Origin: Escherichia coli
Lineage (GTDB): Bacteria > Pseudomonadota > Gammaproteobacteria > Enterobacterales > Enterobacteriaceae
DNA: 64,000 nucleotides
Assembly (NCBI RefSeq): GCF_013122565.1
Contig: NZ_CP053258.1
Direction: 5' to 3' (one strand)
Part shown: positions 1-60,191 of the stretch, piece by piece
Layout: every line of letters starts with the position of its first letter
Numbering within the stretch: position 1 is the stretch's first letter
The notes under the pieces: generated by a model
Database searches by the model: none
What the model was told of the DNA's origin: nothing
Seen by the model: the letters and a program-made list of their open reading frames with translations, nothing else
Translations under genes and position numbers: made by a program

Positions 1-713
1 CGCTCTCCTGTTCAGCCGATCGCAATATCAAAGCAAAAATTAACAAGCACGGTATCTGGCTGGAAAAACTCGAACACAATCCGGGGCAATATATTCCAGC
101 CTCACTATGGGAAGAAAATCACGCGCAACATGTACAACTGGATCTAAACCGTCCGTTGCGTGACGTGATGCAGGATCTCGCCAGATTACCGGTAGGTACC
201 CGCGTGTCGTTAAGTGGTCCCATCGTAGTGGCGCGCGATATCGCCCACGCCAAAATAAAAGCGCGGCTGGATAGCGGCGAATCGATGCCGGAGTACCTGA
301 AGCATCATATTGTCTATTACGCTGGCCCGGCGAAAACACCGGAGAACATGGCCTGCGGTTCACTAGGTCCAACCACGGGCGGTCGAATGGACGGTTATGT
401 CGATACCTTCCAGGCTGCTGGCGGCAGTCTGGTGATGTTATCGAAAGGTAACCGCAGCCAGCAGGTCACCGATGCCTGTCACAAACATGGTGGCTTCAAT
501 CTGGGAAGTATTGGCGGTGCAGCTGCGTTACTGGCGCAAGAATATGTCAAAAGTCTGCGTTGCCTGGAATACCCGGAGCTGGGTATGGAAGCGGTGTGGA
601 TGATGGAAGTGGAAAATCTGCCCGCATTCATCCTGGTAGATGATAAAGGCAATAATTTCTTTAGTCAGTTTGAGCAGCAACACCGCTGCGCCAGTTGCCC
701 TGCGGGACATTAA
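1..713 (+). CDS. Class I (Fe-S) fumarate hydratase, FumA/FumB-family paralog; 3' portion only, 5' end lies outside the window
   Basis: Frame 3 is open from position 3 to the stop at 711-713. The translation ([31 protein letters not shown] ... [12 protein letters not shown] ... ELGMEAVW ... [12 protein letters not shown]) matches the hinge and C-terminal domain of FumA/FumB as I recall them. The ORF track shows only the TTG-initiated tail 156..713. Confidence 0.8.
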
Positions 714-722
714 GGAAAATGA

Positions 723-1325
723 ATGGAAGCGCGAATTTCAACTGAACGGCATGTGCAGCGCCAGCAGAAATTGAAGGAACAGGTCGATACGCGCGTCGCG
801 GCGGCGATAGAGAAAAAAGGGATCTTGATTGTTTTCACCGGCAATGGCAAAGGGAAATCCACTGCCGCGTTTGGTACGGTGACGCGCGCGGTGGGTCATG
901 GCAAAACGGTGGGGGTTGCGCAGTACATCAAGGGGCAATGGGACAACGGCGAATACAACCTTCTCCAGCCGCTCGGGGTTGAGTTTCATATTATGGGAAC
1001 CGGTTTTACCTGGGAGACACAGAACCGGCAAGCGGATATCGACGCGGCGAAAGAGGTCTGGTCGGAAAGCAAACGGATGCTGGCTGACAAGCGTTACGAC
1101 TTAGTGGTGCTTGATGAGCTGACCTATATGCTGGCTTACCATTATCTGGATACCGAAGAAGTGATCGCTTCTCTGCAAAACCGCCCGGCACAACAAAGTG
1201 TCATTGTCACCGGACGCGGTTGCCACAGTCAGATATTAAAAATGGCGGATACGGTCAGCGAAATCCGCCCCGTCAAACATGCTTTTGATAACGGCATTCA
1301 GGCCCAGCCGGGTATCGACTGGTAA
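723..1325 (+). CDS. Cob(I)yrinic acid a,c-diamide / cob(I)alamin adenosyltransferase family protein (BtuR/CobO-like paralog)
   Basis: 200 aa with P-loop GNGKGKSTAAFG and strong similarity to E. coli BtuR as recalled (VFTGNGKGK, GFTWETQNR, VVLDELTYM, TGRGC, VSE-RPVKHAFD). AAGGA Shine-Dalgarno sits 6 nt upstream of the ATG and 9 bp after the fumarase stop. Confidence 0.8.
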   Translation: MEARISTERHVQRQQKLKEQVDTRVAAAIEKKGILIVFTGNGKGKSTAAFGTVTRAVGHGKTVGVAQYIKGQWDNGEYNLLQPLGVEFHIMGTGFTWETQNRQADIDAAKEVWSESKRMLADKRYDLVVLDELTYMLAYHYLDTEEVIASLQNRPAQQSVIVTGRGCHSQILKMADTVSEIRPVKHAFDNGIQAQPGIDW

Positions 1326-1328
1326 TAA

Positions 1329-1360
1329 CTGCGCCTGGCATCCCGCCAGGCGCAGGTTTT
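1329..1360. terminator. Bidirectional intrinsic terminator between the convergent CobO-like and LysR genes
   Basis: Perfect 11-bp inverted repeat CTGCGCCTGGC-atccc-GCCAGGCGCAG followed by GTTTT on the + strand and flanked by an A/T run for the opposite strand. Confidence 0.5.
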
Positions 1361-2264
1361 ACATCTCCTGCGGTACGACCGATTTCGCCAGCAACCATTC
1401 ACGAAATTGCTGCAAGTGCGGCGAGTCAGACTTCTCTTCCTGCCACGTCATAATAAAACGATTACCGGTACGAATAGGCACATCACAGGGAATCACCATA
1501 TCGCCACTATCCAAATCATGTTGAATAGCGAACCGTGGTAACAGCGCCACGCCGAGATTAGAGCGCACGGCGGCAATCAACATTGAAAGCAAATCGAAAC
1601 GTGGCCCGTTGTTGACCAGCGGACTGCTAACGCCAGATAAAGCAAACCACTCTTCCCAGCCAGTAATACGGGTGCTTTGATGCAGAAGTGGTAACTCAGT
1701 AAGCAGTTCTGCCACTGACAGTTTTTGATCGGACATTGCAAGCAAACTGCCGCTGCATACCGGCAAAATCTCCTCTTCAAAGAGATATTCTACTTCCGCC
1801 CAGGGCGCGCAAAAATTTTCGCGCATAATGACAGCATCGTACTCCCGATTAAGAAAATCGCCGTTATTAGCTAAAGAATGAATATTAACAATAATATCGG
1901 GATGTAACTTTGTGAATTCATGTAAATTTGGGATTAACCAGTGGGTACTAAAAGTAGGATTAACGGCAAGTTCAATAACCTGAACCGTAGGCTGCCAGGT
2001 CATAATGGTATTGGTATCGCGTTCCAGCTTATTTAATGTTTCTTTTACTATCCCCAGGTAATACTTCCCTGCATCATTAAGAAAAATACGTTTTTTAGAG
2101 TGTGAAAATAACGGAGTACGTAAAAATTCCTCCAGCGCACTTACTTGTCTGAATACTGCACTTTGGGTTAACGCTAACTCCTCTGCCGCTCTGGTATAAC
2201 TTTCATGACGTGCGACGACCTCAAAAGTCACCAGCAGTTCCGTTTTAGGTATTTTTCCTCGCAT
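1359..2264 (-). CDS. LysR-family transcriptional regulator
   Basis: N-terminal HTH region (LVTFEVVARHESYTRAAEELALTQSAVFRQVSALEEFL) and LysR-type substrate-binding C-terminus. Start chosen at MRGKIPKTELL (2264) rather than the longer track ORF starting at 2294. Confidence 0.8.
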   Translation of the reverse strand: MRGKIPKTELLVTFEVVARHESYTRAAEELALTQSAVFRQVSALEEFLRTPLFSHSKKRIFLNDAGKYYLGIVKETLNKLERDTNTIMTWQPTVQVIELAVNPTFSTHWLIPNLHEFTKLHPDIIVNIHSLANNGDFLNREYDAVIMRENFCAPWAEVEYLFEEEILPVCSGSLLAMSDQKLSVAELLTELPLLHQSTRITGWEEWFALSGVSSPLVNNGPRFDLLSMLIAAVRSNLGVALLPRFAIQHDLDSGDMVIPCDVPIRTGNRFIMTWQEEKSDSPHLQQFREWLLAKSVVPQEM

Positions 2265-2854
2265 AATGCCTTCCGTGAAAAAATAACAATTCAAAAAATT
2301 ATTTTATAAAAAACAGTAGCGCTAATGAATATCATAATTCAAATAAACAAACCAGTCAGCTATATGTCTAACCAGGAAAATAAAGTGACAATAATCCTAA
2401 AACAGGAATTTCACCTCAGTTATCCGCATGCAATGCTTTAAAGCCATTATTGCAAGAATATTATTCATATACATGAATATACTCTAAATAAGTCGAGTTG
2501 GAGGAAGGGAACAAATAATGAATTTCCAGAAGCTTACATAAGTAAGTGACCTGGGTGAGCGAACATCGATGCAGCACATGCAACTTGAATTATGACAAGT
2601 ATACAATGATAAATTTAGATACCCTATGTTATATATTATCTATGTCCGGTTAAATTGAATGAGTCATGGCCTTCAAAGACATCGCAAAAGATAATTTCTC
2701 TTTAACAATAAGCCAGATTTACCACTTGTAAAAATTGCTATCGCCACATACACTACGCGCGTTTTCTTTCCCTTTTGCTGGCTGCTGACCGGAAAGACAA
2801 AATTACCCTCGCAATACAGGGGGTTGTTTAACGTCTATATTTCAGGACAGCGTT

Positions 2855-4252
2855 ATGCATCATCTTTCAAGGCTTGATAAAGCCTTTCTGCGCAAAGGGA
2901 TCCAACTTTCCCGCGCCAACAATATTGTTTCATTATCTCGTCCATCAGGTGTCAGTGCCCGCGTACTGCTGCCAGACGAACTGCCGCTGGAAGAAAAAGC
3001 AGTAACACAACTGCTTGATTTTGCAGAAGTGAAGCTACCAGACCACCCAGGTTATGTACGCCAGACGTGTGCGACGCCAGATTTTCATCCCGGCAATGGC
3101 GTCCCCGTTGGCGCGGTGGTAGCCTCAACGCCGGATTTAGTCATTCCCGCCGCCATCGGCACCGATATTTCTTGTGGCATGCGGCTGCTGACGACCGGAA
3201 TAACACTTGAGCAAGCCGAAGCGCATAAAGACGTCATCACTCAGCGGTTAACGCAAGTGTTACTGCAAAATGAGCGCGATGTTCCGTTATCTGCACGAGC
3301 GTTCACCGCGCTTTTTGATGGCGGGCCGGCAGATTGCATGTCGGCCTTGCCATCAGCAGGTCTCTGGACACGCACGAATATCCCCCGAATGGTACAAGAG
3401 ATTGACCGCTGCATTGGGCTGAACGAGCATAAAAGTCATTCGCGTTATGCCCCACCCGCCCTGCTGGCAACGGACCGCGCATTACTCCGCGACCCTTGTC
3501 TGGGTACGCCGGGTTCAGGTAATCATTTTATTGAACTTCAGGTAGTTGATAGCGTGATCGATCGCCATGTAGCCTGGCAACAAGGGCTGAAAACAGGCGA
3601 TATCGTGGTGATGATCCATAGTGGATCGCGAGATGTCGGCTTTTACGTCGGACGACGCTGGACGGACCGTGCCCGCGCAGACTGGCCCGCTGGGCATAAA
3701 CATCCACAAAGCGGGTTATATGGTCTGGCTGGTGGACTGGCGGAGGAATATCTACAAGCGATGGGAATGGCGGCGCGTTACGCATGGTTAAATCGCGTGA
3801 CCATTACGGAAATGGTGCGCGTATGTTTTGCCGATTTATTCCATCAGGATGAATCACATCTGGTGGTGGATGTGCCGCATAACATCATCCTTCGCGAGCA
3901 TGAGATGAATATTCATCGCAAAGGCGCAACACCGGCACGTGCGGGCGATCTGGCGTTAATCCCCGGTTCAATGGGCGATTATTCGTGGCTTGCGGTAGGT
4001 TGCGGCAACCCGGAGTGGTTGTGGTCATGCAGTCACGGAGCAGGACGCAGCCAGCGTCGGCAGGCCATGCGCGCACACGCGACTGAAGAGTCAACGCTGC
4101 CGTGGCAATGCGTAACACTGCGTGAAGAACGGCGTATTGAGGAAGCGCCAGCTGCTTATAAAGATATTGGTCCGGTTATCGAAGCCCAACAAGAAGCTGG
4201 ATTAATTCAGCCAGCGGTCAGATTTCGACCGTGGTTAACGTTTAAGGCATAA
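2855..4252 (+). CDS. RtcB-family RNA ligase paralog (orphan)
   Basis: 465 aa with the RtcB signature motifs DISCGMR, GSGNHFIE, HSGSR, HN...HRKGA, IPGSMG and SHGAGR. Stop codon is immediately followed by the sucD 3' terminator palindrome. Confidence 0.8.
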   Translation: MHHLSRLDKAFLRKGIQLSRANNIVSLSRPSGVSARVLLPDELPLEEKAVTQLLDFAEVKLPDHPGYVRQTCATPDFHPGNGVPVGAVVASTPDLVIPAAIGTDISCGMRLLTTGITLEQAEAHKDVITQRLTQVLLQNERDVPLSARAFTALFDGGPADCMSALPSAGLWTRTNIPRMVQEIDRCIGLNEHKSHSRYAPPALLATDRALLRDPCLGTPGSGNHFIELQVVDSVIDRHVAWQQGLKTGDIVVMIHSGSRDVGFYVGRRWTDRARADWPAGHKHPQSGLYGLAGGLAEEYLQAMGMAARYAWLNRVTITEMVRVCFADLFHQDESHLVVDVPHNIILREHEMNIHRKGATPARAGDLALIPGSMGDYSWLAVGCGNPEWLWSCSHGAGRSQRRQAMRAHATEESTLPWQCVTLREERRIEEAPAAYKDIGPVIEAQQEAGLIQPAVRFRPWLTFKA

Positions 4253-4349
4253 AAAAGGCCATCATACGATGGCCAACCATGTCGAAACCGACAGCCCTTC
4301 GCCATTCCTGTAGAGGGAAGCGGCGAGGGCTATTTCTTATTACAGATAT
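4253..4349 (-). ncRNA. sdhX: sucD 3'UTR-derived sRNA (SdhX/RybD-like) with intrinsic terminator
   Basis: Minus-strand region directly after the sucD stop ends in hairpin GGCCATCGTATGATGGCC followed by TTTTTT (4253-4276 on +). Position and terminator match the SdhX sRNA as I recall it; exact 5' end not determinable. Confidence 0.5.
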
Positions 4350-5219
4350 TTATTTCAGAACAGTTTTCAGTGCTTCACCGATATCCGCCAGGCTGCGAAC
4401 GGTTTTCACGCCTGCGGCTTCCAGAGCCGCGAATTTCTCATCCGCAGTCCCTTTCCCACCGGCAATGATGGCACCTGCGTGGCCCATACGTTTGCCTTTC
4501 GGCGCAGTCACACCAGCGATGTAACCTACAACTGGCTTGGTAACGTGCTCTTTGATGTACGCTGCTGCTTCTTCTTCAGCGCTACCGCCGATCTCACCGA
4601 TCATCACGATCGCTTCGGTCTGCGGATCTTTTTCGAACATTTCGAGGATGTCGATAAAGTTAGAGCCAGGGATCGGGTCACCGCCGATACCAACACAGGT
4701 CGACTGACCGAAACCGTAATCCGTGGTCTGTTTAACCGCTTCATAGGTCAGTGTACCGGAACGGGAAACGATACCCACTTTACCCGGTTTGTGAATGTGA
4801 CCAGGCTGGATACCGATTTTGCATTCACCTGGGGTGATAACGCCCGGGCAGTTCGGGCCGATCATACGAACGCCGGCTTCATCCAGTTTCACTTTCACAG
4901 TCAGCATATCCAGCGTCGGGATGCCTTCAGTGATGGTGATAATCAGTTTGATGCCTGCGTCGATGGCTTCCAGAATGGAGTCTTTGCAGAACGGTGCTGG
5001 TACGTAGATAACAGAAGCGGTAGCGCCAGTGGCAGCAACGGCTTCACGCACGGTGTTGAACACCGGCAGGCCGAGGTGGGTGGTGCCGCCTTTACCTGGG
5101 GTTACGCCGCCAACCATTTTAGTGCCGTATGCAATAGCCTGTTCTGAGTGGAAAGTCCCCTGGCTACCGGTAAAACCCTGGCAGATAACCTTGGTGTTTT
5201 TATCAATTAAAATGGACAT
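4350..5219 (-). CDS. sucD: Succinyl-CoA synthetase alpha subunit
   Basis: 289 aa, [27 protein letters not shown]..., CoA-binding and phosphohistidine motifs; start overlaps the sucC stop. Confidence 0.97.
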
Positions 5220-6469: not shown

Positions 6470-6640
6470 CGTAGGCCTGATAAGACGCGTCAGCGTCGCA
6501 TCAGGCATCGCTTGTCGGATGCGGCGCGAGCGCCTTATCCGACCTACATCGGTGCTTCCCGTAGGCCTGATAAGACGCGTTAAGCGTCGCATCAGGCTTC
6601 AATGGCCGGAGAAGGCGATAATGCCTTATCCGGTCTACAG
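6470..6640. repeat. BIME / cluster of REP palindromes in the sucB-sucC intergenic region
   Basis: Several alternating-orientation REP units (GCCTGATGCGACGCT...CTTATCAGGCCTAC type, and GCCGGATGCGGCG...CTTATCCGACCTAC). Confidence 0.85.
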
Positions 6641-10873: not shown

Positions 10874-10992
10874 GCCTGATGCGCTGCGCTTATCAGGCCT
10901 ACGGGTAATGACGTGTAGGCCGGATAAGGCGTTCACGCCGCATCCGGCACTGGTTGCCTGATAAGACGCTTGAGCGTCTTATCAGGCCTACG
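10874..10992. repeat. REP cluster in the sdhB-sucA intergenic region
   Basis: Three REP units including two copies of CTTATCAGGCCTAC (10892-10902 and 10981-10991 contain ATCAGGCCTAC). Confidence 0.85.
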
Positions 10993-10994
10993 GT

Positions 10995-11711
10995 TTACGC
11001 ATTACGTTGCAACAACATCGACTTGATATGACCGATGGCGCGCGTCGGGTTCAGCCCCTTCGGACATACACTGACGCAGTTCATGATGCTGTGACAGCGG
11101 AATACACTGAATGCATCGCTCAAACCGTCGAGGCGGCTGTCAGTCTCGGTATCACGGCTATCGATCAGGAAACGATATGCCGCTAACAAGCCTGCCGGGC
11201 CGATAAACTTATCGGGATTCCACCAGAAAGACGGACAAGAGGTTGAACAACATGCGCAGAGAATACATTCATACAGCCCGTCGAGTTTTTCGCGCTGCTC
11301 TGGCATCTGTAAATGCTCGCGAGCTGGCGGATTTTGTTCATTATTCAACAGGTAAGGCTTAATTTTCTCATATTGCGCATAGAATTGTCCCATGTCTACC
11401 ACCAAATCGCGGATCACCGGTAAACCTGGCAGAGGGCGAATCACAATCTTCTTGCCCGGCTGGTTGAGTGCCGAAATTGGGGTAATACAGGCCAGACCAT
11501 TCTTGCCGTTCATGTTCAGACCGTCGGAACCGCACACACCTTCACGACAGGAGCGACGGAACGACAGGCTGGGATCTTTCTCTTTCAGCTGGATAAGCGC
11601 ATCCAGCAGCATCATGTCACGACCTTCTTCCGCTTCCAGGGTGTAATCCTGCATACGCGGAGCATCATCAACATCCGGGTTATAGCGATAAATTGAAAAC
11701 TCGAGTCTCAT
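10995..11711 (-). CDS. sdhB: Succinate dehydrogenase iron-sulfur subunit
   Basis: 238 aa, Cys clusters for the 2Fe-2S, 4Fe-4S and 3Fe-4S centres. Confidence 0.97.
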   Translation of the reverse strand: MRLEFSIYRYNPDVDDAPRMQDYTLEAEEGRDMMLLDALIQLKEKDPSLSFRRSCREGVCGSDGLNMNGKNGLACITPISALNQPGKKIVIRPLPGLPVIRDLVVDMGQFYAQYEKIKPYLLNNEQNPPAREHLQMPEQREKLDGLYECILCACCSTSCPSFWWNPDKFIGPAGLLAAYRFLIDSRDTETDSRLDGLSDAFSVFRCHSIMNCVSVCPKGLNPTRAIGHIKSMLLQRNA

Positions 11712-11726
11712 TTTCCTGTCTCCGCA

Positions 11727-13493
11727 TTAGTAAGTACGAATCTTCGGCGGGAATGCCGGACGCAGTTTCGGTTCCATGTTGACGCTTCGGCGCGTCATGG
11801 ATTCCGACTCTGGCAGATACAGGGAGTGGCACAGCCAGTTTTCATCATCACGATCCGGGAAGTCGAAGCGGCTATGCGCGCCACGGCTTTCGGTACGGAA
11901 GTTGGCAGAAACAGCCGTTGCATACGCCGTTTCCATCAGGTTATCCAGTTCCAGGCACTCAACGCGCTGGGTGTTGAACTCGCTGGAAGTGTCATCCAGA
12001 CGGGCATTTTTCAGACGCTCGCGGATAACTTTCAACTGCTCAAGCCCTTTCGCCATCGCATCACCTTCACGGAAGACCGAGAAGTTATGCTGCATACATT
12101 CTTGCAGCGCTTTACGAATCGCCACCGGATCTTCACCGTTACGATTATTGTTCCAGCGGTTCAGACGATCCAGAGATGCTTCAACATCAGACTCGCTGGC
12201 ATCGCGCAATGCGCCCTGCTCGGCGATAGACTCTTGCAGATGCAGACCCGCTGCGCGACCAAAGACCACCAGGTCCAGCAGCGAGTTGCCGCCCAGACGG
12301 TTAGCACCGTGTACCGATACGCAGGCAATTTCACCTACCGCGAACAGCCCCGGAACAACCACATCTTCGCCTTTCTCATTCACAGTCAGCGCCTGACCGG
12401 TAACTTTGGTCGGAATACCGCCCATCATGTAGTGACAGGTTGGGATAACCGGAATCGGCTCTTTCACCGGATCAACGTGAGCAAAGGTACGGGAAAGCTC
12501 CAGGATACCCGGCAGACGGGATTCGAGAACTTCTTTACCCAGGTGATCGAGTTTCAGTTTCGCGTGTGGCCCCCACGGACCATCACAGCCGCGACCTTCA
12601 CGGATTTCAATCATGATGGAACGCGCCACCACATCACGGCCCGCCAGGTCTTTGGCGTTCGGCGCATAACGCTCCATAAAGCGTTCGCCATGTTTGTTCA
12701 GCAGATAACCGCCTTCACCACGGCAACCTTCGGTGACCAGTACGCCCGCACCGGCAATGCCGGTCGGGTGGAATTGCCACATTTCCATATCCTGCACCGG
12801 TACGCCTGCGCGGATAGCCATGCCGACACCGTCACCGGTGTTAATGTGGGCGTTAGTGGTGGACTGATAAATACGCCCTGCCCCGCCAGTCGCCAGCACG
12901 GTAGCGCGGGCTTTGAAATAAACCACTTCACCGGTTTCGATGCACAGTGCGGTACAACCCACCACCGCGCCATCCTGGTTTTTCACCAGATCCAGCGCAT
13001 ACCACTCGGAGAAAATGGTGGTGTGGTTTTTCAGGTTCTGCTGATAAAGCGTGTGCAACAGTGCGTGACCGGTACGGTCAGCCGCTGCCGCAGTGCGTGC
13101 CGCCTGCTCGCCGCCGAAGTTTTTCGACTGACCGCCAAACGGACGTTGATAGATACGACCATCATCGAGACGCGAGAACGGCAGGCCCATGTGTTCCAGT
13201 TCCAGAATCGCTTCCGGCCCGGTTTTACACATATATTCAATCGCGTCCTGGTCACCGATATAGTCCGACCCTTTCACGGTGTCGTACATATGCCATTCCC
13301 AGTTATCTTCATGGGTATTACCCAGCGCAACGGTAATGCCGCCTTGCGCAGAAACGGTATGGGAACGGGTCGGGAAGACTTTAGAGAGCAGCGCACAGGT
13401 CTGGCCGCTCTGGGAAATTTGCAGCGCCGCGCGCATACCTGCGCCGCCGGCACCAATCACAACTGCATCAAATTCTCTGACTGGCAATTTCAT
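11727..13493 (-). CDS. sdhA: Succinate dehydrogenase flavoprotein subunit
   Basis: Start trimmed to [24 protein letters not shown] (FAD-binding GxGxxG); 588 aa. Confidence 0.97.
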
Positions 13494-13840
13494 CACACAC
13501 CCCACACCACAACGAATCCATAAATCACGTAAACCACCAGTGCAACGACAATCACCAGTTGCAGCATCAGGCGCAAAGCCAGCGGTTTAACGTAGTCGGT
13601 CAACACCTGCCACATGCCGATCCAGGCATGGATCAAGATAGAAAACAGCGCCAGCAGGGTGAACACTTTGGTGAACGCAGAGGCGAAGAAACCGATCCAG
13701 ACTTCATATGTCAGTTCGCCACTGGTGGCGAAAAAACCGACCATATAAATGATGTAGAGCGTCAGGACGATAGCGGTAGCGCGAACGAGGATGAAATCAT
13801 GTACGCCATTGCGTCCTAATGCGGAGGCGTTGCTTACCAT
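13493..13840 (-). CDS. sdhD: Succinate dehydrogenase membrane anchor subunit
   Basis: 115 aa hydrophobic protein, [21 protein letters not shown]... Confidence 0.95.
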
Positions 13841-14223
13841 ACGAGGACTCCTGCGAGAAGTGAAAGCACGACAGTAATAACAAAGGAGATTTTGGCGGAG
13901 CGTTTACCCGCTTCGAATGTTTCTTCCAGATAGCCAAAATCCATCATCATGTGGCGAATACCTACGACGACGTGATACGCCAGAGCGGTAAGGATGCCCC
14001 ACATGATAAATTTGACGAAGAAGCTGCCCATAATCGCGGAAGCTTGCTCGAAACCTTCAGGGGAAGAGAGGCTGGTACCCAGAAGCCACAGCAGGATGCC
14101 CACAGCAACAAAGGTGATCACACCGGAAACGCGATGGAGAATGGACGCTATCGCCGTGATGGGGAACCGGATGGTCTGTAGGTCCAGATTAACAGGTCTT
14201 TGTTTTTTCACATTTCTTATCAT
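13834..14223 (-). CDS. sdhC: Succinate dehydrogenase cytochrome b556 subunit
   Basis: Start trimmed to [34 protein letters not shown] (129 aa). Confidence 0.95.
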
Positions 14224-14238
14224 GAATAACGCCCACAT

Positions 14239-14931
14239 GCTGTTCTTATTATTCCCTGGGGACTACGGGCACAGAGGTTAACTTTCTGTTACCTGGAGAC
14301 GTCGGGATTTCCTTCCTCCGGTCTGCTTGCGGGTCAGACAGCGTCCTTTCTATAACTGCGCGTCATGCAAAACACTGCTTCCAGATGCGAAAACGACACG
14401 TTACAACGCTGGGTGGCTCGGGATTGCAGGGTGTTCCGGAGACCTGGCGGCAGTATAGGCCGTTCACAAAATCATTACAATTAACCTACATATAGTTTGT
14501 CGGGTTTTATCCTGAACAGTGATCCAGGTCACGATAACAACATTTATTTAATTTTTAATCATCTAATTTGACAATCATTCAACAAAGTTGTTACAAACAT
14601 TACCAGGAAAAGCATATAATGCGTAAAAGTTATGAAGTCGGTATTTCACCTAAGATTAACTTATGTAACAGTGTGGAAGTATTGACCAATTCATTCGGGA
14701 CAGTTATTAGTGGTAGACAAGTTTAATAATTCGGATTGCTAAGTACTTGATTCGCCATTTATTCGTCATCAATGGATCCTTTACCTGCAAGCGCCCAGAG
14801 CTCTGTACCCAGGTTTTCCCCTCTTTCACAGAGCGGCGAGCCAAATAACAAACGGGTAAAGCCAGGTTGATGTGCGAAGGCAAATTTAAGTTCCGGCAGT
14901 CTTACGCAATAAGGCGCTAAGGAGACCTTAA
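14239..14931. promoter_or_regulatory. Divergent gltA / sdhCDAB-sucABCD control region
   Basis: 693-bp AT-rich intergenic region between divergent sdhC and gltA. By established knowledge it holds the gltA and sdhC promoters; individual sites are not resolved here. Confidence 0.5.
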
Positions 14932-16215: not shown

Positions 16216-16606
16216 TGGTTGATTGCTAAGTTGTAAATATTTTAACCCGCTGTTCATATGGCGGGTTAATTTTTATATGCCTAAATACAAATATTTGTAA
16301 AAATAAAATCCACTATCGGATATCCATATATTTTTAATAAAAATATATCGGTATGAATTATAAACAGTTCAGTGAACTTTAATCACCTATATTCCTGTCA
16401 GTCACATGAATAAATCACCAAACATAGCGCACCCCTATAATTTCCAATGGTTTATTCATTAAACAATTAATTCACGACATCAATTAATTACTTTTACATT
16501 TAATAAAATTAATAATATTTTTAAGAAAAACTAAAAACATTCGACAATCAAATAAGATATTCTTGCACCGATATACCTTTTTTCTTTTCTGTTAAAGGAC
16601 TCTGTT

Positions 16607-17173
16607 ATGTTTAAAGGACAAAAAACATTGGCCGCACTGGCCGTATCTCTGCTGTTCACTGCACCTGTTTATGCAGCTGATGAAGGATCCGGTGAAATTC
16701 ACTTTAAAGGTGAGGTTATTGAAGCGCCTTGTGAAATACATCAGGATGATATTGATAAAGAAGTTGAACTCGGTCAGGTGACCACCAGCCACATTAATCA
16801 AACTCATCACAGCGATGCCGTTGCTGTCGACCTGCGCTTGGTGAATTGCGATTTGGAAAACTCCAACAACGGTTCCGGTGACAAGATTTCTAAAGTTGCA
16901 GTCACCTTTGATAGCTCAGCGAAAACCACCGGCGCAGATCCGATTCTCAACAACACCAGCACGGGTGAAGCCACCGGCGTCGGCGTGCGTTTATTGAATA
17001 AAAATCAAACCAATATCGTTTTAGGCACCGCTGCTCCAGACATCGACCTGGCTCCGACCTCCAGCGAGCAAACGCTGAATTTCTTTGCCTGGATGGAACA
17101 AATTGATCAGGCAACACCAGTAACGCCAGGTGCAGTTACGGCGAATGCAACCTACGTGCTGGATTATAAATAA
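16607..17173 (+). CDS. ybgD: Fimbrial subunit (chaperone-usher fimbriae)
   Basis: 188 aa with signal peptide (MFKGQKTLAALAVSLLFTAPVYA) and fimbrial subunit C-terminal Y-x-L-x-Y-K-like pattern. Confidence 0.85.
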   Translation: MFKGQKTLAALAVSLLFTAPVYAADEGSGEIHFKGEVIEAPCEIHQDDIDKEVELGQVTTSHINQTHHSDAVAVDLRLVNCDLENSNNGSGDKISKVAVTFDSSAKTTGADPILNNTSTGEATGVGVRLLNKNQTNIVLGTAAPDIDLAPTSSEQTLNFFAWMEQIDQATPVTPGAVTANATYVLDYK

Positions 17174-17223
17174 GTATTACTTTGGCGGCGCTATCGCCGC
17201 CTTTCTTCAAATATTTATCAGGT

Positions 17224-19683
17224 ATGGACACCGTGAATATTTATCGACTCTCTTTTGTATCCTGCCTGGTCATGGCGATGCCTTCCGCATTAGCGGTCGA
17301 ATTCAACCTGAATGTCCTCGATAAATCGATGCGCGATCGTATTGATATATCATTATTAAAGGAAAAAGGTGTCATTGCTCCAGGCGAATATTTTGTTAGC
17401 GTTGCGGTAAATAATAACCAAATCAGTAACGGGCAAAAGATTAACTGGCAAAAAAATGACGATAAAACCATTCCGTGCATCAATGATTTACTGGTCGATA
17501 AATTTGGCTTAAAACCTGAAGTCCGTCAGTCGTTACCATTGATAAATCAGTGCATCGATTTTAGCTCCCGACCTGAAATGCTCTTCAATTTTGATCAGGC
17601 CAGTCAGCAACTGAATATCACCATTCCGCAGGCCTGGCTGGCGTGGCACTCAGATAACTGGACCCCACCCTCCACATGGAAAGAAGGTGTCGCCGGTGTC
17701 CTGATGGATTACAACTTGTTTGCTAGCAGCTACCGCCCACAGAATGGCAGCAGCAGCACTAATCTTAACGCCTACGGAACAGCAGGAATCAACACGGGGG
17801 CATGGCGCTTACGCAGTGATTACCAGTTGAATCAGACGGATAGCGATGATGACCATGAACAGTCAGGCGAAATATCACGTACCTATCTTTTTCGCCCGTT
17901 ACCGCAATTAGGTTCAAAATTAACCCTCGGCGAAACGGATTTTAGTTCCAATATTTTCGACGGTTTTTCTTATACCGGTGCGGCACTGGCGAGTGACGAT
18001 CGAATGTTGCCATGGGAACTACGCGGCTACGCTCCACAAATTAGCGGTATTGCACAGACCAATGCCACGGTGACGATCAGTCAATCAGGCCGCGTCATTT
18101 ACCAGAAAAAAGTCACACCAGGTCCGTTTATCATTGATGACCTTAATCAGTCCGTCCAGGGAACGCTGGATGTCAAAGTAACGGAAGAAGATGGTCGGGT
18201 GAACAATTTCCAGGTTTCGGCAGCATCGACGCCCTTCCTGACTCGCCAGGGACAGGTTCGCTATAAACTGGCCGCGGGTCAGCCACGGCCTTCCATGTCA
18301 CATCAAACTGAAAATGAAACCTTTTTTAGCAATGAAGTTTCCTGGGGGATGCTCTCCAACACCTCGCTGTACGGCGGCCTGCTGATTTCGGGTGATGACT
18401 ACCATTCTGCCGCAATGGGTATCGGGCAAAATATGCTGTGGCTTGGCGCGCTGTCGTTTGATGTCACCTGGGCCAGTAGCCATTTTGATACTCAGCAGGA
18501 CGAGCGGGGCTTAAGCTACCGATTTAACTACAGCAAACAAGTGGATACCACCAACAGCACGATTTCACTTGCCGCTTATCGTTTCTCCGATCGTCATTTT
18601 CACAGCTACGCCAACTATCTGGATCACAAATACAACGACAGCGATGCGCAGGACGAAAAACAGACAATCAGCTTATCCGTAGGCCAACCGATTACCCCAC
18701 TAAACCTCAATCTTTACGCCAACCTGTTGCATCAAACCTGGTGGAATGCAGACGCCTCCACGACCGCCAACATCACGGCAGGTTTTAATGTTGATATTGG
18801 TGACTGGAGAGATATCTCGATTTCGACGTCATTCAATACAACCCATTACGAAGATAAAGATCGCGATAACCAGATTTACCTGTCGATTTCGCTCCCCTTC
18901 GGTAACGGTGGCCGGGTTGGCTATGACATGCAAAACAGTAGCCACAGCACCACACACCGCATGTCGTGGAACGATACGCTGGATGAACGTAATAGCTGGG
19001 GCATGTCTGCCGGACTGCAATCCGACCGTCCGGACAGTGGAGCCCAGGTGAGCGGTAACTATCAGCACCTGAGTTCAGCGGGTGAGTGGGATATTTCTGG
19101 TACCTATGCCGCCAATGATTACAGTTCTGTAAGCAGCAGCTGGAGCGGTTCTTTCACCGCAACCCAATATGGTGCAGCGTTTCATCGCCGCAGCTCCACC
19201 AATGAACCACGCCTGATGGTCAGCACCGATGGCGTGGCAGATATTCCGGTTCAGGGCAATCTCGACTACACCAACCATTTTGGCATTGCGGTGGTGCCGT
19301 TGATTTCCAGTTACCAGCCTTCCACCGTGGCGGTGAACATGAATGACTTACCCGACGGCGTAACAGTTGCAGAAAACGTTATCAAAGAAACGTGGATTGA
19401 AGGCGCAATAGGTTACAAATCACTGGCTTCCCGTTCCGGTAAAGACGTTAACGTCATCATTCGCAACGCCAGCGGTCAGTTCCCTCCCCTCGGTGCGGAT
19501 ATCCGCCAGGATGACAGCGGCATTAGCGTGGGGATGGTTGGCGAGGAAGGACACGCCTGGTTAAGCGGAGTCGCTGAAAATCAAAAGTTTACCGTGGTCT
19601 GGGGTGATAGTCAGCGTTGCTCGATCCATCTTCCTGAACATATGGAAGACACCGCAAATCGCCTGATTTTACCTTGTCATTAA
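17224..19683 (+). CDS. ybgQ: Fimbrial outer-membrane usher
   Basis: About 820 aa, usher-family size and composition; start chosen at MDTVNIYRLSFVSCLVMAMPSALA. Confidence 0.85.
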   Translation: MDTVNIYRLSFVSCLVMAMPSALAVEFNLNVLDKSMRDRIDISLLKEKGVIAPGEYFVSVAVNNNQISNGQKINWQKNDDKTIPCINDLLVDKFGLKPEVRQSLPLINQCIDFSSRPEMLFNFDQASQQLNITIPQAWLAWHSDNWTPPSTWKEGVAGVLMDYNLFASSYRPQNGSSSTNLNAYGTAGINTGAWRLRSDYQLNQTDSDDDHEQSGEISRTYLFRPLPQLGSKLTLGETDFSSNIFDGFSYTGAALASDDRMLPWELRGYAPQISGIAQTNATVTISQSGRVIYQKKVTPGPFIIDDLNQSVQGTLDVKVTEEDGRVNNFQVSAASTPFLTRQGQVRYKLAAGQPRPSMSHQTENETFFSNEVSWGMLSNTSLYGGLLISGDDYHSAAMGIGQNMLWLGALSFDVTWASSHFDTQQDERGLSYRFNYSKQVDTTNSTISLAAYRFSDRHFHSYANYLDHKYNDSDAQDEKQTISLSVGQPITPLNLNLYANLLHQTWWNADASTTANITAGFNVDIGDWRDISISTSFNTTHYEDKDRDNQIYLSISLPFGNGGRVGYDMQNSSHSTTHRMSWNDTLDERNSWGMSAGLQSDRPDSGAQVSGNYQHLSSAGEWDISGTYAANDYSSVSSSWSGSFTATQYGAAFHRRSSTNEPRLMVSTDGVADIPVQGNLDYTNHFGIAVVPLISSYQPSTVAVNMNDLPDGVTVAENVIKETWIEGAIGYKSLASRSGKDVNVIIRNASGQFPPLGADIRQDDSGISVGMVGEEGHAWLSGVAENQKFTVVWGDSQRCSIHLPEHMEDTANRLILPCH

Positions 19684-19697
19684 TTAAGGAAATGAAA

Positions 19698-20429
19698 ATG
19701 ACATTTATGAAAGGACTTCCCCTTTTGTTGTTGGTAGCCAGTCTGTGCAGCCACGCAGCACTACAACCCGATCGTACTCGTATTGTGTTTAACGCTAATG
19801 ATAAAGCTACCAGTCTGCGAGTAGATAATCGTAGCGATAAACTCCCCTACCTCGCTTATTCCTGGCTCGAAAATGAAAAAGGGGAGAAAAGCGACGATCT
19901 TCTGGTCGCCCTGCCACCGATACAACGTCTGGAACCGAAAGCAACAACGCAGGTGCGGATAGTCAAGCAAGCCTCGACCGCGAAATTACCGGGCGATCGC
20001 GAAACGCTATTTTTCTACAATATACGTGAAATTCCTCCCGCCCCGGAAAAAAACAGCGACCATGCCGTTCTGCAGGTCGCCATCCAGAGCCGTATCAAGG
20101 TGTTCTGGCGACCGTCTGCGTTACGCAAGAAAGCAGGGGAAAAGGTCGAACTGCAGTTACAGGTCAGCCAGAATGGCAACCAACTTAGCTTAAAAAACCC
20201 GACCGGCTATTATCTGACAATCGCCTACCTGGGACGAAATGAGCAAGGCGTTCTCCCCGGCTTCAAAACCGTGATAGTTGCACCTTTTAGTACGGTCAGC
20301 ACTAATACCGGAAGCTATAGCGGCAGCCAGTTTTATCTCGGTTATATGGATGATTACGGCGCGTTACGCATGACGACGCTCAATTGTAGCGGACAATGCC
20401 GTTTACAAGCCGTGGAGGCGAAGAAATGA
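19698..20429 (+). CDS. ybgP: Fimbrial periplasmic chaperone
   Basis: About 243 aa PapD-like chaperone with signal peptide ([20 protein letters not shown]). Confidence 0.85.
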
Positions 20430-21487
20430 GTGCTGGTAAGGGATTATTGCTCATCTTTTTTCTTCTTTTTCTACCCTTGAAGTCTGCGCTGGCGCTGAAC
20501 TGCTATTTTGGTACTTCCGGCGGGGCGGTAGAAAAATCGGAAGCTATTCAACCATTTGCTGTACCAGGCAATGCCAAACCAGGCGATAAAATCTGGGAGT
20601 CTGACGATATTAAAATTCCCGTTTATTGTGACAACAATACCAACGGCAACTTTGAAAGCGAGCATGTCTACGCCTGGGTAAACCCGTATCCGGGGGTGCA
20701 GGATCCTTATTATCAACTCGGCGTGACATACAATGGTGTCGATTACGATGCCAGCCTGGGGAAAAGCCGTATCGACACTAACCAGTGTATCGACAGTAAA
20801 AACATTGATATTTATACCCCTGAGCAGATCATCGCGATGGGATGGCAGAACAAAATTTGCTCGGGCGATCCCGCTAATATTCATATGTCGCGTACCTTTC
20901 TCGCTCGCATGCGGTTATACGTCAAAATTCGCGAAATGCCACCGCATGATTATCAAAGCACGCTTAGCGATTACATCGTGGTGCAATTTGATGGCGAAGG
21001 CAGTGTTAATGAGGACCCTACCGCTCAAAACCTGAAATATCATATTACCGGTCTGGAAAACATTCGCGTGCTGGACTGCAGCGTCAATTTTGCCATTACG
21101 CCTGCCAACCAGGTGATTGATTTTGGTAAATTTAACTTGCTGGATATTCGGCGACATAACATGACTAAAACGTTCAGTATTAAAACGACCAAGAGCCAAA
21201 ACGATCAATGTACCGACGGATTTAAAGTCAGTTCCTCCTTTTATACCGAAGAAACATTGATTGAAGAAGATAAAGCATTGTTGATTGGTAATGGTCTGAA
21301 GCTACGTTTACTGGATGAAAACGCCTCGCCTTATACATTCAATAAATATGCTGAATACGCCGATTTCACCAGTGACATGTTGATCTACGAAAAAACCTAT
21401 ACAGCTGAACTTTCGTCCATTCCAGGCACCCCCATCGAGGCTGGGCCCTTCGATACAGTGGTGCTTTTTAAGATTAACTATAACTGA
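20426..21487 (+). CDS. ybgO: Fimbrial adhesin-like protein
   Basis: About 353 aa secreted protein with signal peptide; last gene of the ybgDQPO cluster. Confidence 0.8.
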
Positions 21488-21638
21488 TTTACCATCATGC
21501 CCTTTGCAGCCGAAAAGGGCATCTCATTCAGAAAATTGCTGATTTTCCCCTTTTCCTTGATTGCTGTTATTTTTTCCTGGCCCGGCTTTCTTTATGCTGT
21601 ATCGATACACCAAAGAGAAAATAATGAGGGAGCAAAGG

Positions 21639-22685
21639 ATGCCAGTTTTGCAGTGGGGAATGTTATGTGTGTTATCACTTCTCCTTTCTATTGGTTTCCT
21701 CGCGGTACATCTCCCGGCGGCGCTATTACTTGGGCCGATGATCGCCGGGATCATCTTTAGTATGCGCGGAATTACTCTGCAACTTCCCCGCTCCGCTTTT
21801 CTCGCCGCCCAGGCCATTCTTGGCTGCATGATTGCGCAAAACCTCACTGGTTCGATCCTGACCACGCTGGCGGTGAACTGGCCGATTGTGTTAGCTATTT
21901 TACTGGTGACGCTGCTTTCCAGCGCCATTGTTGGGTGGCTACTGGTGCGCTATAGCTCATTACCTGGAAATACCGGTGCCTGGGGTTCTTCTCCTGGCGG
22001 CGCGGCGGCAATGGTCGCTATGGCGCAAGATTACGGCGCAGATATTCGCCTGGTGGCGTTTATGCAATATCTGCGAGTGCTGTTCGTCGCAGGGGCCGCT
22101 GTTCTGGTCACACGCATGATGCTGGGCGATAACGCTGAAGCGGTTAACCAGCAGATCGTCTGGTTTCCGCCAGTGAGCATTAATCTCCTGCTTACGATTT
22201 TGCTCGCGGTCGTTGCCGGTACAGTGGGATGCCTGCTGCGTCTTCCTTCCGGCACGATGCTCATCCCGATGCTGGCGGGCGCAGTGCTCCAGTCTGGTCA
22301 GCTCATCACCATCGAACTACCGGAATGGCTGCTGGCGATGGCGTATATGGCAATTGGCTGGCGAATTGGTCTGGGCTTCGATAAACAAATCTTATTGCGG
22401 GCATTGCGACCGCTGCCGCAAATCTTGATGTCGATTTTTGCTCTGCTGGCTATTTGTGCGGGTATGGCGTGGGGGCTGACCCGGTTTATGCACATTGATT
22501 TTATGACTGCCTACCTCGCCACCAGCCCCGGCGGGCTTGATACCGTGGCGGTCATCGCCGCAGGGAGCAATGCCGATATGGCGCTCATTATGGCGATGCA
22601 AACCCTGCGCCTGTTCAGTATTTTGCTGACAGGGCCTGCCATTGCGCGGTTTATTTCAACCTATGCGCCGAAACGTACGGCTTAG
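21639..22685 (+). CDS. abrB: AbrB-family membrane protein (putative regulator/transporter)
   Basis: Start trimmed to [20 protein letters not shown]; polytopic membrane protein with internal duplication; 348 aa. Confidence 0.85.
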
Positions 22686-23473
22686 TGCTGGCAGCCAGGA
22701 CACCAGTAAAACGGGCGCGATGACAACGTGGTTTTCTCAATGATGTCGCCACAGCGTTCGCACGGTTCGCCATCACGATGAAAAACCTTAAAGCGAAACA
22801 GCGCCCCATGATGCTTATTCTCATCCACCTGCCCCCGCGTAGCGTAAGAAAGTCGAGGAATATCCAGTAACGCGTGTGCGAGTGCATCCAGTTGCGCCGC
22901 CTTGAGATCTTTCGCTTTATGATTCCCAGTCAACCCAACCTGCCAGAGGATCTCCACCCGCAGATAATTGCCAAGCCCAGCGAGAAACGCCTGATCGAGC
23001 AGTAATCCAGCAAACTGACGGTTACGAAAGCGCGGCGACAATAACCGTTCTTTCACCACCTCCGGCGTCAGATTCGGATCCAGCACATCGGGACCAACGC
23101 GTTGTAAAAACGGATGCGTGGTCAGTTGTTCCGGGGTCAACATCTCAATATCCGAGGCGCTATAAAGCAGAATGGTTTTGTCGGCAGTTTGCAGCTTCAC
23201 CCGCAGCACGCGCGTGGTTTGCGGCTCTTCACCGGTATCAACCACCCGCCACACGCCGTACAGCTGGTTATGGCTGTAGAGCGTTAAGCCATCGGAAAAA
23301 TGGGTCAGCAACGCTTTTCCGCGTGTTTCCATATGAGTGACGTGTTGACCGATAAGTTGTGACTGATACGGTTGTAACTGCGGGAAGGCAAACCAGACAT
23401 CAGTTAGTGGTTTGCCTTTAATCGCCACCTCCAGGTTATCCGCTGCGCGGCGGATCTCCGGACCTTCAGGCAT
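22682..23473 (-). CDS. nei: Endonuclease VIII (DNA glycosylase/AP lyase)
   Basis: 263 aa, N-terminal MPEGPEIRR catalytic proline and C-terminal zinc finger ([25 protein letters not shown]). Confidence 0.95.
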
Positions 23474-23507
23474 GGTGATATCCTTTTTTCGTTTTTATTC
23501 AGCGGGA

Positions 23508-24242
23508 TTATGCTGAGACAACAATCCCCTTTTTGGCAAATGCAGAGCGTAATCGGTGGGCAAACGCCAGCGCGTGCTCGCCGTCACCATGCAGGCAGAC
23601 CGTTTGTGCCGTTACTTTCGCCCATTCGCCAGTGATGCTTTTAACTCTGCCGTTTTGCACCATCTCCAGCGTCTGTGCAAGCGCCTGTTCTTCGTCTTCA
23701 ATCAGCGCGCCTGGCTGGCTTCGCGGCACCAGCGAGCCGTCAGCCTTGTAACCGCGATCGGCAAACACTTCCTCGCGCGTTGTCAGGCCATATTGCTTGC
23801 CTGCACGAATCAGCTCGCTTCCCGCCAGCCCGACGAGAATCAATGCCGGATCGCAAGCGTATACCGCTCTGGCGATGGCGTCTGCCAGTTGTGCCTCTTT
23901 CGCCGCCTGGTTGTATAACATGCCGTGCGGTTTAACATGGCGCATAACACCGCCTTGCGCACGGGCAATCGTTGCCAGCGCGCCAATTTGATACAGCGTC
24001 TGGGCGTAAACGGTTTCTGGCGGCAGCTGCATGACGCTGCGCCCAAAATTTTCCCTGTCGGGAAAACTCGGGTGAGCGCCAATCGCAACACCATTTTTTA
24101 TTGCTTCACGCACGCAAGCCTGCATGGTTTGCGCATCGCCTGCATGAAATCCACAGGCAATATTGGCAGAGGAAACCAGCGTTAATAGCTCTGCGTCGCT
24201 GGCATAGCCTTCGCCCAGATCGGCGTTCAGGTCAATTTTCAT
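23508..24242 (-). CDS. pxpA: 5-oxoprolinase subunit A (LamB/YcsF family)
   Basis: 244 aa, [36 protein letters not shown]...; K-12 ybgL. Confidence 0.9.
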
Positions 24243-25164
24243 TGTGCAGCCGCCACGCTAATTGTTCGAAATAACGTTGCTGATCTTGCCGTGCTTTCAG
24301 TGCTTCTTCCAGTGAACACTGGACAAAATGAATCGGCTGACCGAGCGGAATTTGCGCCAGATGGTACATATCAGCCTCGATGATACAGGCAATACGCGGA
24401 TAACCACCGGTGGTCTGTGCGTCGTTCATCAACACAATCGGCTGCCCGTTATGCGGCACCTGCACCACGCCCGGTAACAAACCGTGAGATAACAGTTCGC
24501 GATCGGTGGTGCGTTTTAAAATTTGCCCCTGTAAGCGATAGCCCATACGGTTGCTTTGCGGGCTAAGCTGCCAGGGCGAACGCCAGAATGCATCCTGCGA
24601 GGCGCGATCGAACTCATGATATTCCGGCCCCGGCAAGGCACGAATGCGGTTGCCCCACAGCAGCTGTTTAACGCCCTGCGCTTCCATAAAATCACGCTTC
24701 GCTTTGCCAATCGGGAGCCGGTCACCATCCTTCAGTAAACGGCCTTCCAGCCCGCCAATCCCCACGTTGAGATCGGTGCTGCATGACCCCATTACCGGCG
24801 GAACATCAATACCACCCGCGACCGCCAGATAACTGCGCATCCCGTGCTGCGGGCGTTTAAGCGTTAAACGCTGGCCTGCTTTCATCGGCAATCGCCAGCC
24901 GGTCCAGACGGCGTTATCATCCAGCCGCGCTTCGCAACCTGCACCCGTCAGGGCAAACCACCCATCAGTTTCGAACTCAACCGTTAACTGACCGAGCGTG
25001 ATTTCCAGCGCGGGGGCATTGTCGTCATTACCCACCAGCAGGTTAGCAATGCGCAGCGCAGGCATATCCAGTGCGCCACAGTGGCTGATACCCGACTGGC
25101 GAAAACCGTGACGACCGCCATCCTGCACAGTGGTATACATGCCCGCACGAATAATCTTCAGCAT
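24232..25164 (-). CDS. pxpC: 5-oxoprolinase subunit C (allophanate hydrolase subunit 2 family)
   Basis: 310 aa; K-12 ybgK; overlaps neighbours as in an operon. Confidence 0.9.
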
Positions 25165-25814
25165 ACTCCCTCCTTCTGCGGTACAAAGCGCACGCTGTCT
25201 CCCGGACGTAATAAGATGGGTTCGTCACGCGCCGGATCAAACAGGCTGAGTGAGGTGTGACCAATCAACTGCCAGCCACCCGGCGTCGCCAGCGGATAAA
25301 CGCCAGTCTGCGGCCCGCCGATCCCGACAGAACCTGCAGGAACGAGCAAGCGCGGTTCAGCGCGCCGTGGCGTGTGTAGTTGTTCCGGCAAACTCCCGAG
25401 ATACGGGAAGCCCGGTTGAAAACCTAAAAACCAGACCACGTATTCCACGGAGGAGTGCAATTCAACAACCTGTTTTTCGCTCAACCCACAATGCGCCGCG
25501 ACCACCGCCAAATCCGGTCCGCCTGCTCCACCGTAAACCACCGGAATTTCAATAAAGCGAGAATCCGGCTCCAGCGCCTCACTCTCCTCCCACCAGCGTT
25601 GCAAACGCTCTATGGCATCCAGCGCCAGCGACTCAGGATTACGCAAAATCACCGTGATATTGTTCATGCCGGGAATAGCTTCAACCACATTCGGCATATC
25701 CACCAGACGCTGTGCCAGTCGCCAGATCCGTTTCTGGCTAGCCAGCGTCACCGGCGGTTCCAGTTCCAGCACTACCGCCGTTTCACCTATCAGATAACAA
25801 CGCGCTCGTTGCAC
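25158..25814 (-). CDS. pxpB: 5-oxoprolinase subunit B (allophanate hydrolase subunit 1 family)
   Basis: 218 aa; K-12 ybgJ. Confidence 0.9.
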
Positions 25815-25836
25815 TTTCGATCCCTCTGATTATTCG

Positions 25837-26580: not shown

Positions 26581-26667
26581 CTTCGCGCCTTCCGTATTCT
26601 GATAGCTACACCGTTAACATAGCGTTACCTCGCCTGTTCGTCGATAGCCAATCTTTTGACATATTAA

Positions 26668-28332
<1,665 letters not shown>

Positions 28333-28374
28333 CAGGCCAGCACCGATGCCTGATAAGACGCTCGCTGCGTTTTA

Positions 28375-30299: not shown

Positions 30300-30400
30300 T
30301 ACTGCTCCTGAACGGTTTACAGGAGTAAGTGTAGACGGCGAAAAGAAAAAAACCGCCAGCGTTTCCACTAGCGGTTTTCAATGTATTCAAAACTCAGCAA

Positions 30401-38685: not shown

Positions 38686-38808
38686 AAAAAGTGGCAATGT
38701 ATGGATAAAGTCATTTTTTATTCAAATATAAGGAACTTAATATTTAAAAAATGTTCCATACAATTCCTCATCATAAATGACACCGTAGCACACAAGGAGC
38801 AAGTAGCG

Positions 38809-55756: not shown

Positions 55757-55854
55757 GCCTGATGCGCTACGCTTATCAGGCCTACGCAGCTCCTGCAATA
55801 TATTGAATTTTCATGCTTTTGTAGGCCGGATAAGGCGTTCACGCCGCATCCGGC
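55757..55854. repeat. REP pair (BIME) between nagD and asnB
   Basis: GCCTGATGCGCTACGCTTATCAGGCCTAC and inverted GTAGGCCGGATAAGGCGTTCACGCCGCATCCGGC. Confidence 0.85.
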
Positions 55855-58221: not shown

Positions 58222-58230
58222 TCTTTTTTT

Positions 58231-58315: not shown

Positions 58316-58338
58316 TTCACCAGAAAGCGTTGTACGGA

Positions 58339-58413: not shown

Positions 58414-58447
58414 TCTTCTTCGAGTAAGCGGTTCACCGCCCGGTTAT

Positions 58448-58967: not shown

Positions 58968-60191
<1,224 letters not shown>

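Follow-up and report, generated by a model that had tools for sequence, protein, structure and literature searches.

The first 1,325 nucleotides of the window, by which we mean the whole 64,000-nucleotide stretch of Escherichia coli DNA analysed here, very probably form the 3' end of the enterobacterial methylaspartate (mesaconate) island, which serves glutamate fermentation and has fumD and cobO as its last two genes. The window begins inside fumD, and the upstream context was read from the relatives 2017-02-2CC, O157:H7 PV15-279 and XJ5.2, the last of which is the closest (99.6% identical over the fumD-cobO pair); island membership of the pair in the window strain is taken over from them. 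In all three E. coli relatives the genes run glmS, glmL, glmE, methylaspartate ammonia-lyase, an AtuA-family gene, a DUF4387 gene, a symporter gene of the dicarboxylate/amino-acid:cation type, fumD and cobO, and the island sits between cydA and sucD. The products of glmS and glmE are subunits S and E of methylaspartate/glutamate mutase, encoded in the relatives about 6-9 kb upstream, and glmL encodes an accessory protein. The first-pass annotation of this DNA had held that the pairing of a hydro-lyase with an adenosyltransferase-like protein was not known from characterised operons. The pairing had been described before. Accounts of the two genes, their operon and the enzymology of FumD appeared in 2015: Fig. 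5 of Kronen & Berg (PMC4682846) draws GltP-FumD-CobA-LysR, and its legend lists GltP, FumD, CobA (cob(I)alamin adenosyltransferase) and an LTTR. The annotation had also stated that upstream sequence placing the pair in a characterised cobalamin operon would speak against its view, and this is where the upstream sequence of the relatives places it.

Table 1. Features at the downstream end of the island in the window
Feature	Position	Strand	Remarks
fumD, 3' part	3..713	+	residues 315-550 of the 550-residue class I fumarate hydratase/mesaconase FumD; 5' part outside the window
Shine-Dalgarno sequence AAGGA for cobO	712..716	+	overlaps the fumD stop codon TAA (711-713); read from the sequence
cobO, island copy	723..1325	+	predicted CobA/BtuR-type ATP:cob(I)alamin adenosyltransferase, 200 residues; last gene of the operon
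Terminator-like hairpin	1329..1355	+	11-bp stem with 9 G-C pairs; GTTTTAC comes next; in the gap that separates cobO from the convergent LysR gene
LysR-family regulator gene	1359..2264	-	convergent; LysR/GcvA-like matches; start codon as in the RefSeq annotation of relatives
sucD	4350-5219	-	

The partial class I Fe-S hydro-lyase proposed for the window start is a real gene and no chance reading frame (Table 1). The stop-free frame runs from position 3 to the TAA codon and gives 236 residues, the C-terminal part of a class I Fe-S fumarate hydratase, which match the NCBIfam model NF011921 ('class I fumarate hydratase') over profile positions 315-550 of 550 with E=2.4e-162. In a subgroup test the same residues scored 541 bits with NF011921 versus 376 with the FumA model NF011919 and 370 with NF011920, the full-length cut-off of NF011921 (1060 bits) being out of reach for a fragment that makes up 43% of the protein. 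A further match is to the C-terminal half of 5L2R, a class I fumarase from Leishmania (E=1.8e-89). In the alignment to Leishmania FH-2 (5L2R/6UQM) the cysteine of SCSADR is kept, as are the motifs GPTTGGRMD and KGNRS. We take SCSADR, GPTT.GRMD and KGNRS to represent Cys346 (the third cluster-ligand cysteine), Thr467/468, Arg471 and Lys491 of LmFH-2. The sequence comparisons thus assign the window hydro-lyase to the FumD/mesaconase subgroup of the class I Fe-S fumarate hydratases.

The closest characterised protein is FumD of E. coli O157:H7 (ECs0757 / ECATCC700728_0849), to which the window protein is identical at 233 of 236 positions. The three substitutions are W/R, S/P and V/I, the comparison covering the part downstream of the N-terminal 314 residues, which lie outside the window together with the domain that carries the other two Fe-S cysteines. 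Both genes share the same stop codon, the same downstream cobO and the same site between cydA and sucD, and the gene-specific part of the FumD_rev cloning primer (PMC4682846) matches window positions 696-713 on the minus strand exactly. FumD of O157:H7 was named, cloned and characterised as a mesaconase/fumarase by Kronen & Berg (2015, PLoS One, PMC4682846), who showed biochemically that it hydrates mesaconate to (S)-citramalate and reported a kcat/Km of 2x10^6 M-1 s-1 for mesaconate versus 7.5x10^5 M-1 s-1 for fumarate. In that study the fumD ORF alone was cloned in pET16b; the purified protein was highly active under anoxic handling and could be reactivated with Fe2+ and a thiol (PMC4682846). 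By this biochemistry of a 99%-identical protein the window FumD would be an oxygen-sensitive [4Fe-4S] class I hydro-lyase converting mesaconate to (S)-citramalate. The gene, labelled only 'class I fumarate hydratase' in RefSeq, can therefore be annotated as fumD (mesaconase). It is intact at 550 residues in relatives and interrupted by IS1 in XJ5.2.

The second gene had been read as encoding a BtuR/CobO-like P-loop protein and this reading is upheld by profile matches and sequence alignments. Its product scores above the curated cut-offs of two models for cob(I)yrinic acid a,c-diamide adenosyltransferase, NF004637 (295.6 vs 185 bits) and TIGR00708 cobA (246.6 vs 167.75 bits), and can be aligned over its full length with Salmonella CobA (1G5R; E=2.5e-88). 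The P-loop GNGKGK(S/T)T and the GFTWETQ motif are kept in the alignments to 1G5R and BtuR, the latter motif presumably belonging to the corrinoid site (Phe91/Trp93 of Salmonella CobA). The protein shares 67% of its amino acids with E. coli BtuR and 69% with Salmonella CobA, both alignments being free of indels. Compared with these housekeeping enzymes, Salmonella enterica CobA (1G5R, 4HUT) and E. coli BtuR, the island CobO is of the same length class and gap-free, and judged by its residues it keeps every hallmark of a corrinoid adenosyltransferase. It differs from them in being a second, island-borne paralogue encoded by the last cistron of a catabolic operon, whereas btuR sits at the yciK-btuR locus, and the gene is accordingly best annotated as the island copy cobO and not as btuR. 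Our literature search found no experimental work on the island CobO/CobA.

Both genes were suspected to be extra, diverged copies, which a survey of complete E. coli genomes bears out. In 5422 of 5426 genomes there is DNA resembling btuR/cobO at about 68% nucleotide identity; the island copy itself occurs in 1122 records. With the fumD fragment as query, fumA/fumB-like copies of about 70% nucleotide identity were found in essentially all E. coli genomes, with a median of 2 such places per genome and 3 in carriers of the island.

The assignments of the mutase, of FumD and of the two proteins between methylaspartate ammonia-lyase and the symporter together mean that the island encodes a complete catabolic route. 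The AtuA-family and DUF4387 proteins match chains A and B of PDB 9ERQ/9EVF, which were deposited as citramalate lyase cmlA and cmlB. A two-subunit citramalate lyase cmlAB was used in a preprint, and a literature search for a primary CmlAB paper did not find one; the once-missing citramalate lyase step of the pathway now has a deposited structure. The island then reads glmS-glmL-glmE-mal-cmlA-cmlB-gltP-fumD-cobO with a convergent LysR gene, inserted between cydA and sucD, and from the mutase, FumD and CmlAB assignments it carries the full conversion of glutamate via 3-methylaspartate, mesaconate and (S)-citramalate to pyruvate and acetate.

Glutamate mutase is a B12-dependent enzyme, and MutL/GlmL is its reactivating chaperone (PMC4682846). 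The suggestion that the adenosyltransferase could serve an enzyme encoded upstream is in keeping with the adenosylcobalamin-dependent mutase GlmS/GlmE found there in relatives, and we consider it most likely that CobO makes adenosylcobalamin for glutamate mutase rather than maturing the hydro-lyase. CobO would convert salvaged or inactivated cobalamin to adenosylcobalamin for GlmS/GlmE of the same operon, and CobO with the reactivase GlmL would make up a module for cofactor supply and recycling. E. coli lacks de novo B12 synthesis, and a salvaged corrinoid must be adenosylated before use as adenosylcobalamin. Dedicated operon-encoded adenosyltransferases are the rule for other adenosylcobalamin enzymes such as those served by PduO and EutT. 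By analogy the island may follow the same logic as pdu (PduO with PduGH) and eut (EutT with EutA), where an adenosyltransferase and a reactivase share the operon of the enzyme, the reactivase here being GlmL/MutL. The island enzyme is CobA-type, whereas PduO and EutT come from two different adenosyltransferase families that are unrelated to it. A stronger version of this proposal is that the island CobO is a CobA-type enzyme specialised for glutamate mutase, which hands its product straight to GlmS or works in a cycle with GlmL. A PduO-type adenosyltransferase hands its cofactor to methylmalonyl-CoA mutase, which offers a likeness for such a hand-off, but we regard this specialisation as unlikely. 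If it were true, CobO would be the first CobA-type enzyme tied to an operon for which a client is defined.

The two genes are separated by a 9-nt spacer (714-722) carrying a Shine-Dalgarno sequence, much as the first-pass annotation had described, and this sequence overlaps the fumD stop codon and ends 6 nt before the ATG of cobO. The junction TAAGGAG, 5-7 nt, ATG is kept in Citrobacter, Klebsiella, Salmonella, Raoultella, Lelliottia, Buttiauxella and Pluralibacter. Two features expected of a translationally coupled pair, a short junction and a Shine-Dalgarno sequence at the upstream stop, are present at fumD-cobO. We found no mRNA structure hiding the Shine-Dalgarno sequence at this junction: a 100-nt fold was no better than those of shuffled sequences (z=+1.1), and in the minimum free energy structure the Shine-Dalgarno sequence lies within an unpaired loop. 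Since the junction RNA shows no excess of structure over shuffles and the Shine-Dalgarno sequence is unpaired, there is no evidence for structure-dependent coupling. Co-translation of fumD and cobO would be allowed by the spacing and coupling by re-initiation is possible. As operon junctions go, this one is compact and ordinary, and it gives no reason to connect the two proteins functionally beyond their membership of the same pathway.

Of 5426 complete E. coli genomes, 1121 (21%) carry the fumD-cobO pair; an earlier figure was 26.5% of the then-sequenced strains (PMC4682846). The glmS-to-mal block is found at a coverage of at least 80% in 1121 genomes, and the whole 10-kb block from glmS to cobO is contiguous in 1117 of the 1121 carriers of the pair. 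Beyond E. coli we surveyed one genome per species using GlmE as bait and mapped the cluster proteins by tblastn. In 20 or more loci from enterobacterial species fumD adjoins cobO and the gene order of the island is the same. An arrangement of fumD, cobO directly after it and then a convergent LysR gene was seen in many species of Citrobacter, in Klebsiella oxytoca, in Salmonella enterica subsp. arizonae and diarizonae as well as in Raoultella, Lelliottia, Buttiauxella, Pluralibacter and one Enterobacter species. In Yersinia aldovae and Y. rohdei the pair is located on the other side of the cluster and on the opposite strand, still together. Mutase clusters that have the lyase genes and fumD and lack cobO are found in Pseudescherichia vulneris, Escherichia sp. 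ESNIH1 and Enterobacteriaceae UBA7338. Among the distant-phylum loci sampled cobO is absent throughout, and FumD-like genes (about 50% identity) follow AtuA/DUF4387 without it in Aminicenantes, Riflebacteria, Verrucomicrobia, Acidobacteria and others. When cobO is part of a cluster it always adjoins fumD and never glmS or glmE, and gene order alone therefore does not indicate the mutase as its client.

Both genes are maintained by strong purifying selection. Their lengths are identical in 9 other genomes from 7 genera, with dN of about 0.1 and saturated dS, and dN/dS is at most 0.07 for fumD and cobO (0.03-0.07 for cobO against other genera). Decay was seen in two places. In XJ5.2, besides the IS1 that splits fumD, the symporter gene has an internal stop. 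In Escherichia sp. E1V33 a deletion removes codons 4 to about 113 of cobO, and the P-loop with them, and there is no gltP symporter gene. Against 1117 length-intact copies these are sporadic exceptions.

The strict neighbourhood of the two genes could be explained if CobO were an accessory or maturation factor of FumD, for example a P-loop ATPase for insertion of the Fe-S cluster. It is in line with this idea that cobO, if present in a mutase locus, lies directly 3' of fumD, that the Yersinia pair moved together and that the junction is conserved. Yet the protein is a full-length and indel-free homologue of Salmonella CobA with its corrinoid- and ATP-binding motifs kept. Further, FumD made from a fumD-only plasmid was highly active when kept anoxic and was reactivated by Fe2+ and thiol alone (PMC4682846). 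There are also four enterobacterial lineages and at least 10 distant-phylum loci whose clusters hold FumD or FumD-like genes, including homologues beside mutase genes, and no cobO. The proposal of the first-pass annotation that CobO matures the hydro-lyase finds no support here and is already largely refuted; we hold it to be extremely improbable.

A less drastic alternative is that the island CobO is a redundant BtuR duplicate hitch-hiking with the island and feeding the general corrinoid pool, with no specific relation to the mutase. The near-universal presence of BtuR would fit with this, as would the clusters that do without cobO and our Rfam search, which found no cobalamin riboswitch or other B12-specific regulatory RNA in the island or the window; the only matches were the REP-derived naRNA4, a tRNA cluster and ES036. 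Indeed, with BtuR already present in E. coli and clusters without cobO in existence, the island CobO may be dispensable. Against it, the gene is kept at low dN/dS in the same operon position across many genera, including those with a housekeeping cobA, and dedicated adenosyltransferases are usual in other adenosylcobalamin operons. We judge redundancy to be improbable. One may also ask if the whole cluster, fumD-cobO included, is a remnant, silent or in decay, that no longer has a function in E. coli. Kronen & Berg found no conditions for expression of the cluster in O157:H7; whatever the condition they tried, methylaspartate ammonia-lyase activity went undetected and glutamate did not improve growth (PMC4682846). 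The lesions of XJ5.2 and E1V33 point the same way. On the other hand both ORFs are intact in the window, their constant length and low dN against saturated dS speak for continued function, and the 10-kb block is length-intact in 1117 of 1121 carriers, which makes such a remnant very improbable. Supply of adenosylcobalamin to glutamate mutase thus stays our preferred role for CobO.

The downstream end of the island lies within the window itself. The hairpin that follows cobO was the top match of a consensus scan, a consensus match only, and it is also kept in Escherichia sp. E1V33; by its sequence it probably marks the end of the operon. The LysR gene occurs at the equivalent position in relatives and adjoins cobO across genera, and it is the LTTR in Fig. 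5 of Kronen & Berg (PMC4682846) and presumably the regulator of the cluster. Mechanical calling extends this ORF to position 2294. The convergent LysR gene after cobO and the site between cydA and sucD are a layout common to the window and its relatives, with the difference that the window strain has, on the way from the LysR gene to sucD, an RtcB-family gene that is absent from O157:H7. A PADLOC scan of CobO and the neighbouring RtcB-family protein gave no matches, and a consensus promoter scan gave matches no more numerous than in shuffled sequence.

The island shares its pathway and first enzymes with the clostridial cluster glmS-mutL-glmE-mal-mesAB-citDEF/CXG and departs from it further downstream. 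In clostridia the mesaconase is split into MesA and MesB and the citramalate lyase is of the CitDEF type, whereas the enterobacterial type has the single-chain FumD, CmlAB (AtuA/DUF4387) and often CobO. No cobA-type gene was found within 10 kb of the clostridial cluster. As a side observation, the two kinds of citramalate lyase genes were mutually exclusive among 56 GlmE-anchored loci with at least 7 kb of sequence downstream of mal: 44 had AtuA/DUF4387 only, 11 had CitE/CitF only, 1 had neither and none had both. This exclusion agrees with the CmlAB assignment, the idea of a replacement being already established by 9ERQ/9EVF and the preprint.

Immediately 3' of the methylaspartate ammonia-lyase gene of the island lies a gene pair encoding an AtuA(DUF1446) protein and a DUF4387 protein, an arrangement found in Enterobacterales as well as in many distant phyla. 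Both proteins match the structures deposited as 'citramalate lyase CmlA/CmlB' (PDB 9ERQ/9EVF). The RefSeq names remain 'acyclic terpene utilization AtuA family protein' for the first and 'DUF4387 domain-containing protein' for the second. Among the 56 GlmE-anchored loci that extend at least 7 kb downstream of mal, the pair was present in 44 and CitE/CitF-type citramalate lyase genes in 11, with one locus carrying neither and none carrying both. The two gene sets are thus perfectly mutually exclusive among these loci.

Sporadic decay of the island is visible among relatives and affects fumD, the symporter gene and cobO. The cobO gene of Escherichia sp. E1V33 has lost about 330 bp internally and the P-loop has gone with the deletion; the symporter gene is missing from the island of the same strain.

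Features of the window and of related loci (L-numbers denote loci from other genomes)
Feature	Location	Strand	Remark
AtuA(DUF1446)/DUF4387 gene pair	L001 10828-12509; loci L004-L083		upstream of window position 1
fumD split by IS1	L003 (E. coli XJ5.2, closest relative) 12284-14713		
symporter gene with internal stop	L003 (E. coli XJ5.2) 10897-12177		
cobO with internal deletion	L004 (Escherichia sp. E1V33) 11066-11340		
intergenic region upstream of RtcB-family gene	window 2295-2854		560 bp
RtcB-family protein gene	window 2855-4252	+	465 aa; between LysR gene and sucD
REP-derived naRNA4 (RF02564) match	window 6474-6544	-	sucC-sucB intergenic region
REP-derived naRNA4 (RF02564) match	window 10918-10988	+	sucA-sdhB intergenic region
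ES036/CssrF match	window 55778-55820	-	after nagD
seven-tRNA cluster	window 58145-58846		
IS621 copy (IS110 family)	window 58959-60251	+	
IS621 transposase ORF	window 59162-60142		326 aa

The RtcB-family protein encoded beside the island matches RtcB models solely by its C-terminal half (residues 213-464), with a score of 201.6 bits that falls under the cut-off of 407. Its N-terminal 212 residues matched no model and a PADLOC scan of the protein gave zero matches. Of 5426 E. coli genomes, just 143 have the complete arrangement of window positions 1-4300. The RtcB-family gene is absent from O157:H7, and no such gene was seen adjoining the island in other genera.

Comparison with strain 2017-02-2CC revealed further differences along the window. 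A 4.3 kb speFL-speF-potE segment, located 3' of kdpE in that strain, is missing from the window at 38542-38686. In 2017-02-2CC it is bounded by a direct repeat that comprises about 145 bp from the 3' end of kdpE and carries the annotation of a partial winged-helix pseudogene in that strain. This layout suggests that the segment was either deleted when the repeats recombined or inserted in the other lineage. From the ybgQ fimbrial operon through phrB (16454-30340) nucleotide identity to 2017-02-2CC is 92-94%, versus 96-97% elsewhere, and at about 30340-30346 that strain has an additional 2.2 kb, with CDI immunity genes and hypothetical genes, which the window is without. The IS621 copy also differs in location, adjoining the seven-tRNA cluster just downstream in the window and lying between nagD and asnB in 2017-02-2CC. 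The naRNA4 and ES036/CssrF matches in the window are ordinary E. coli repeat elements.
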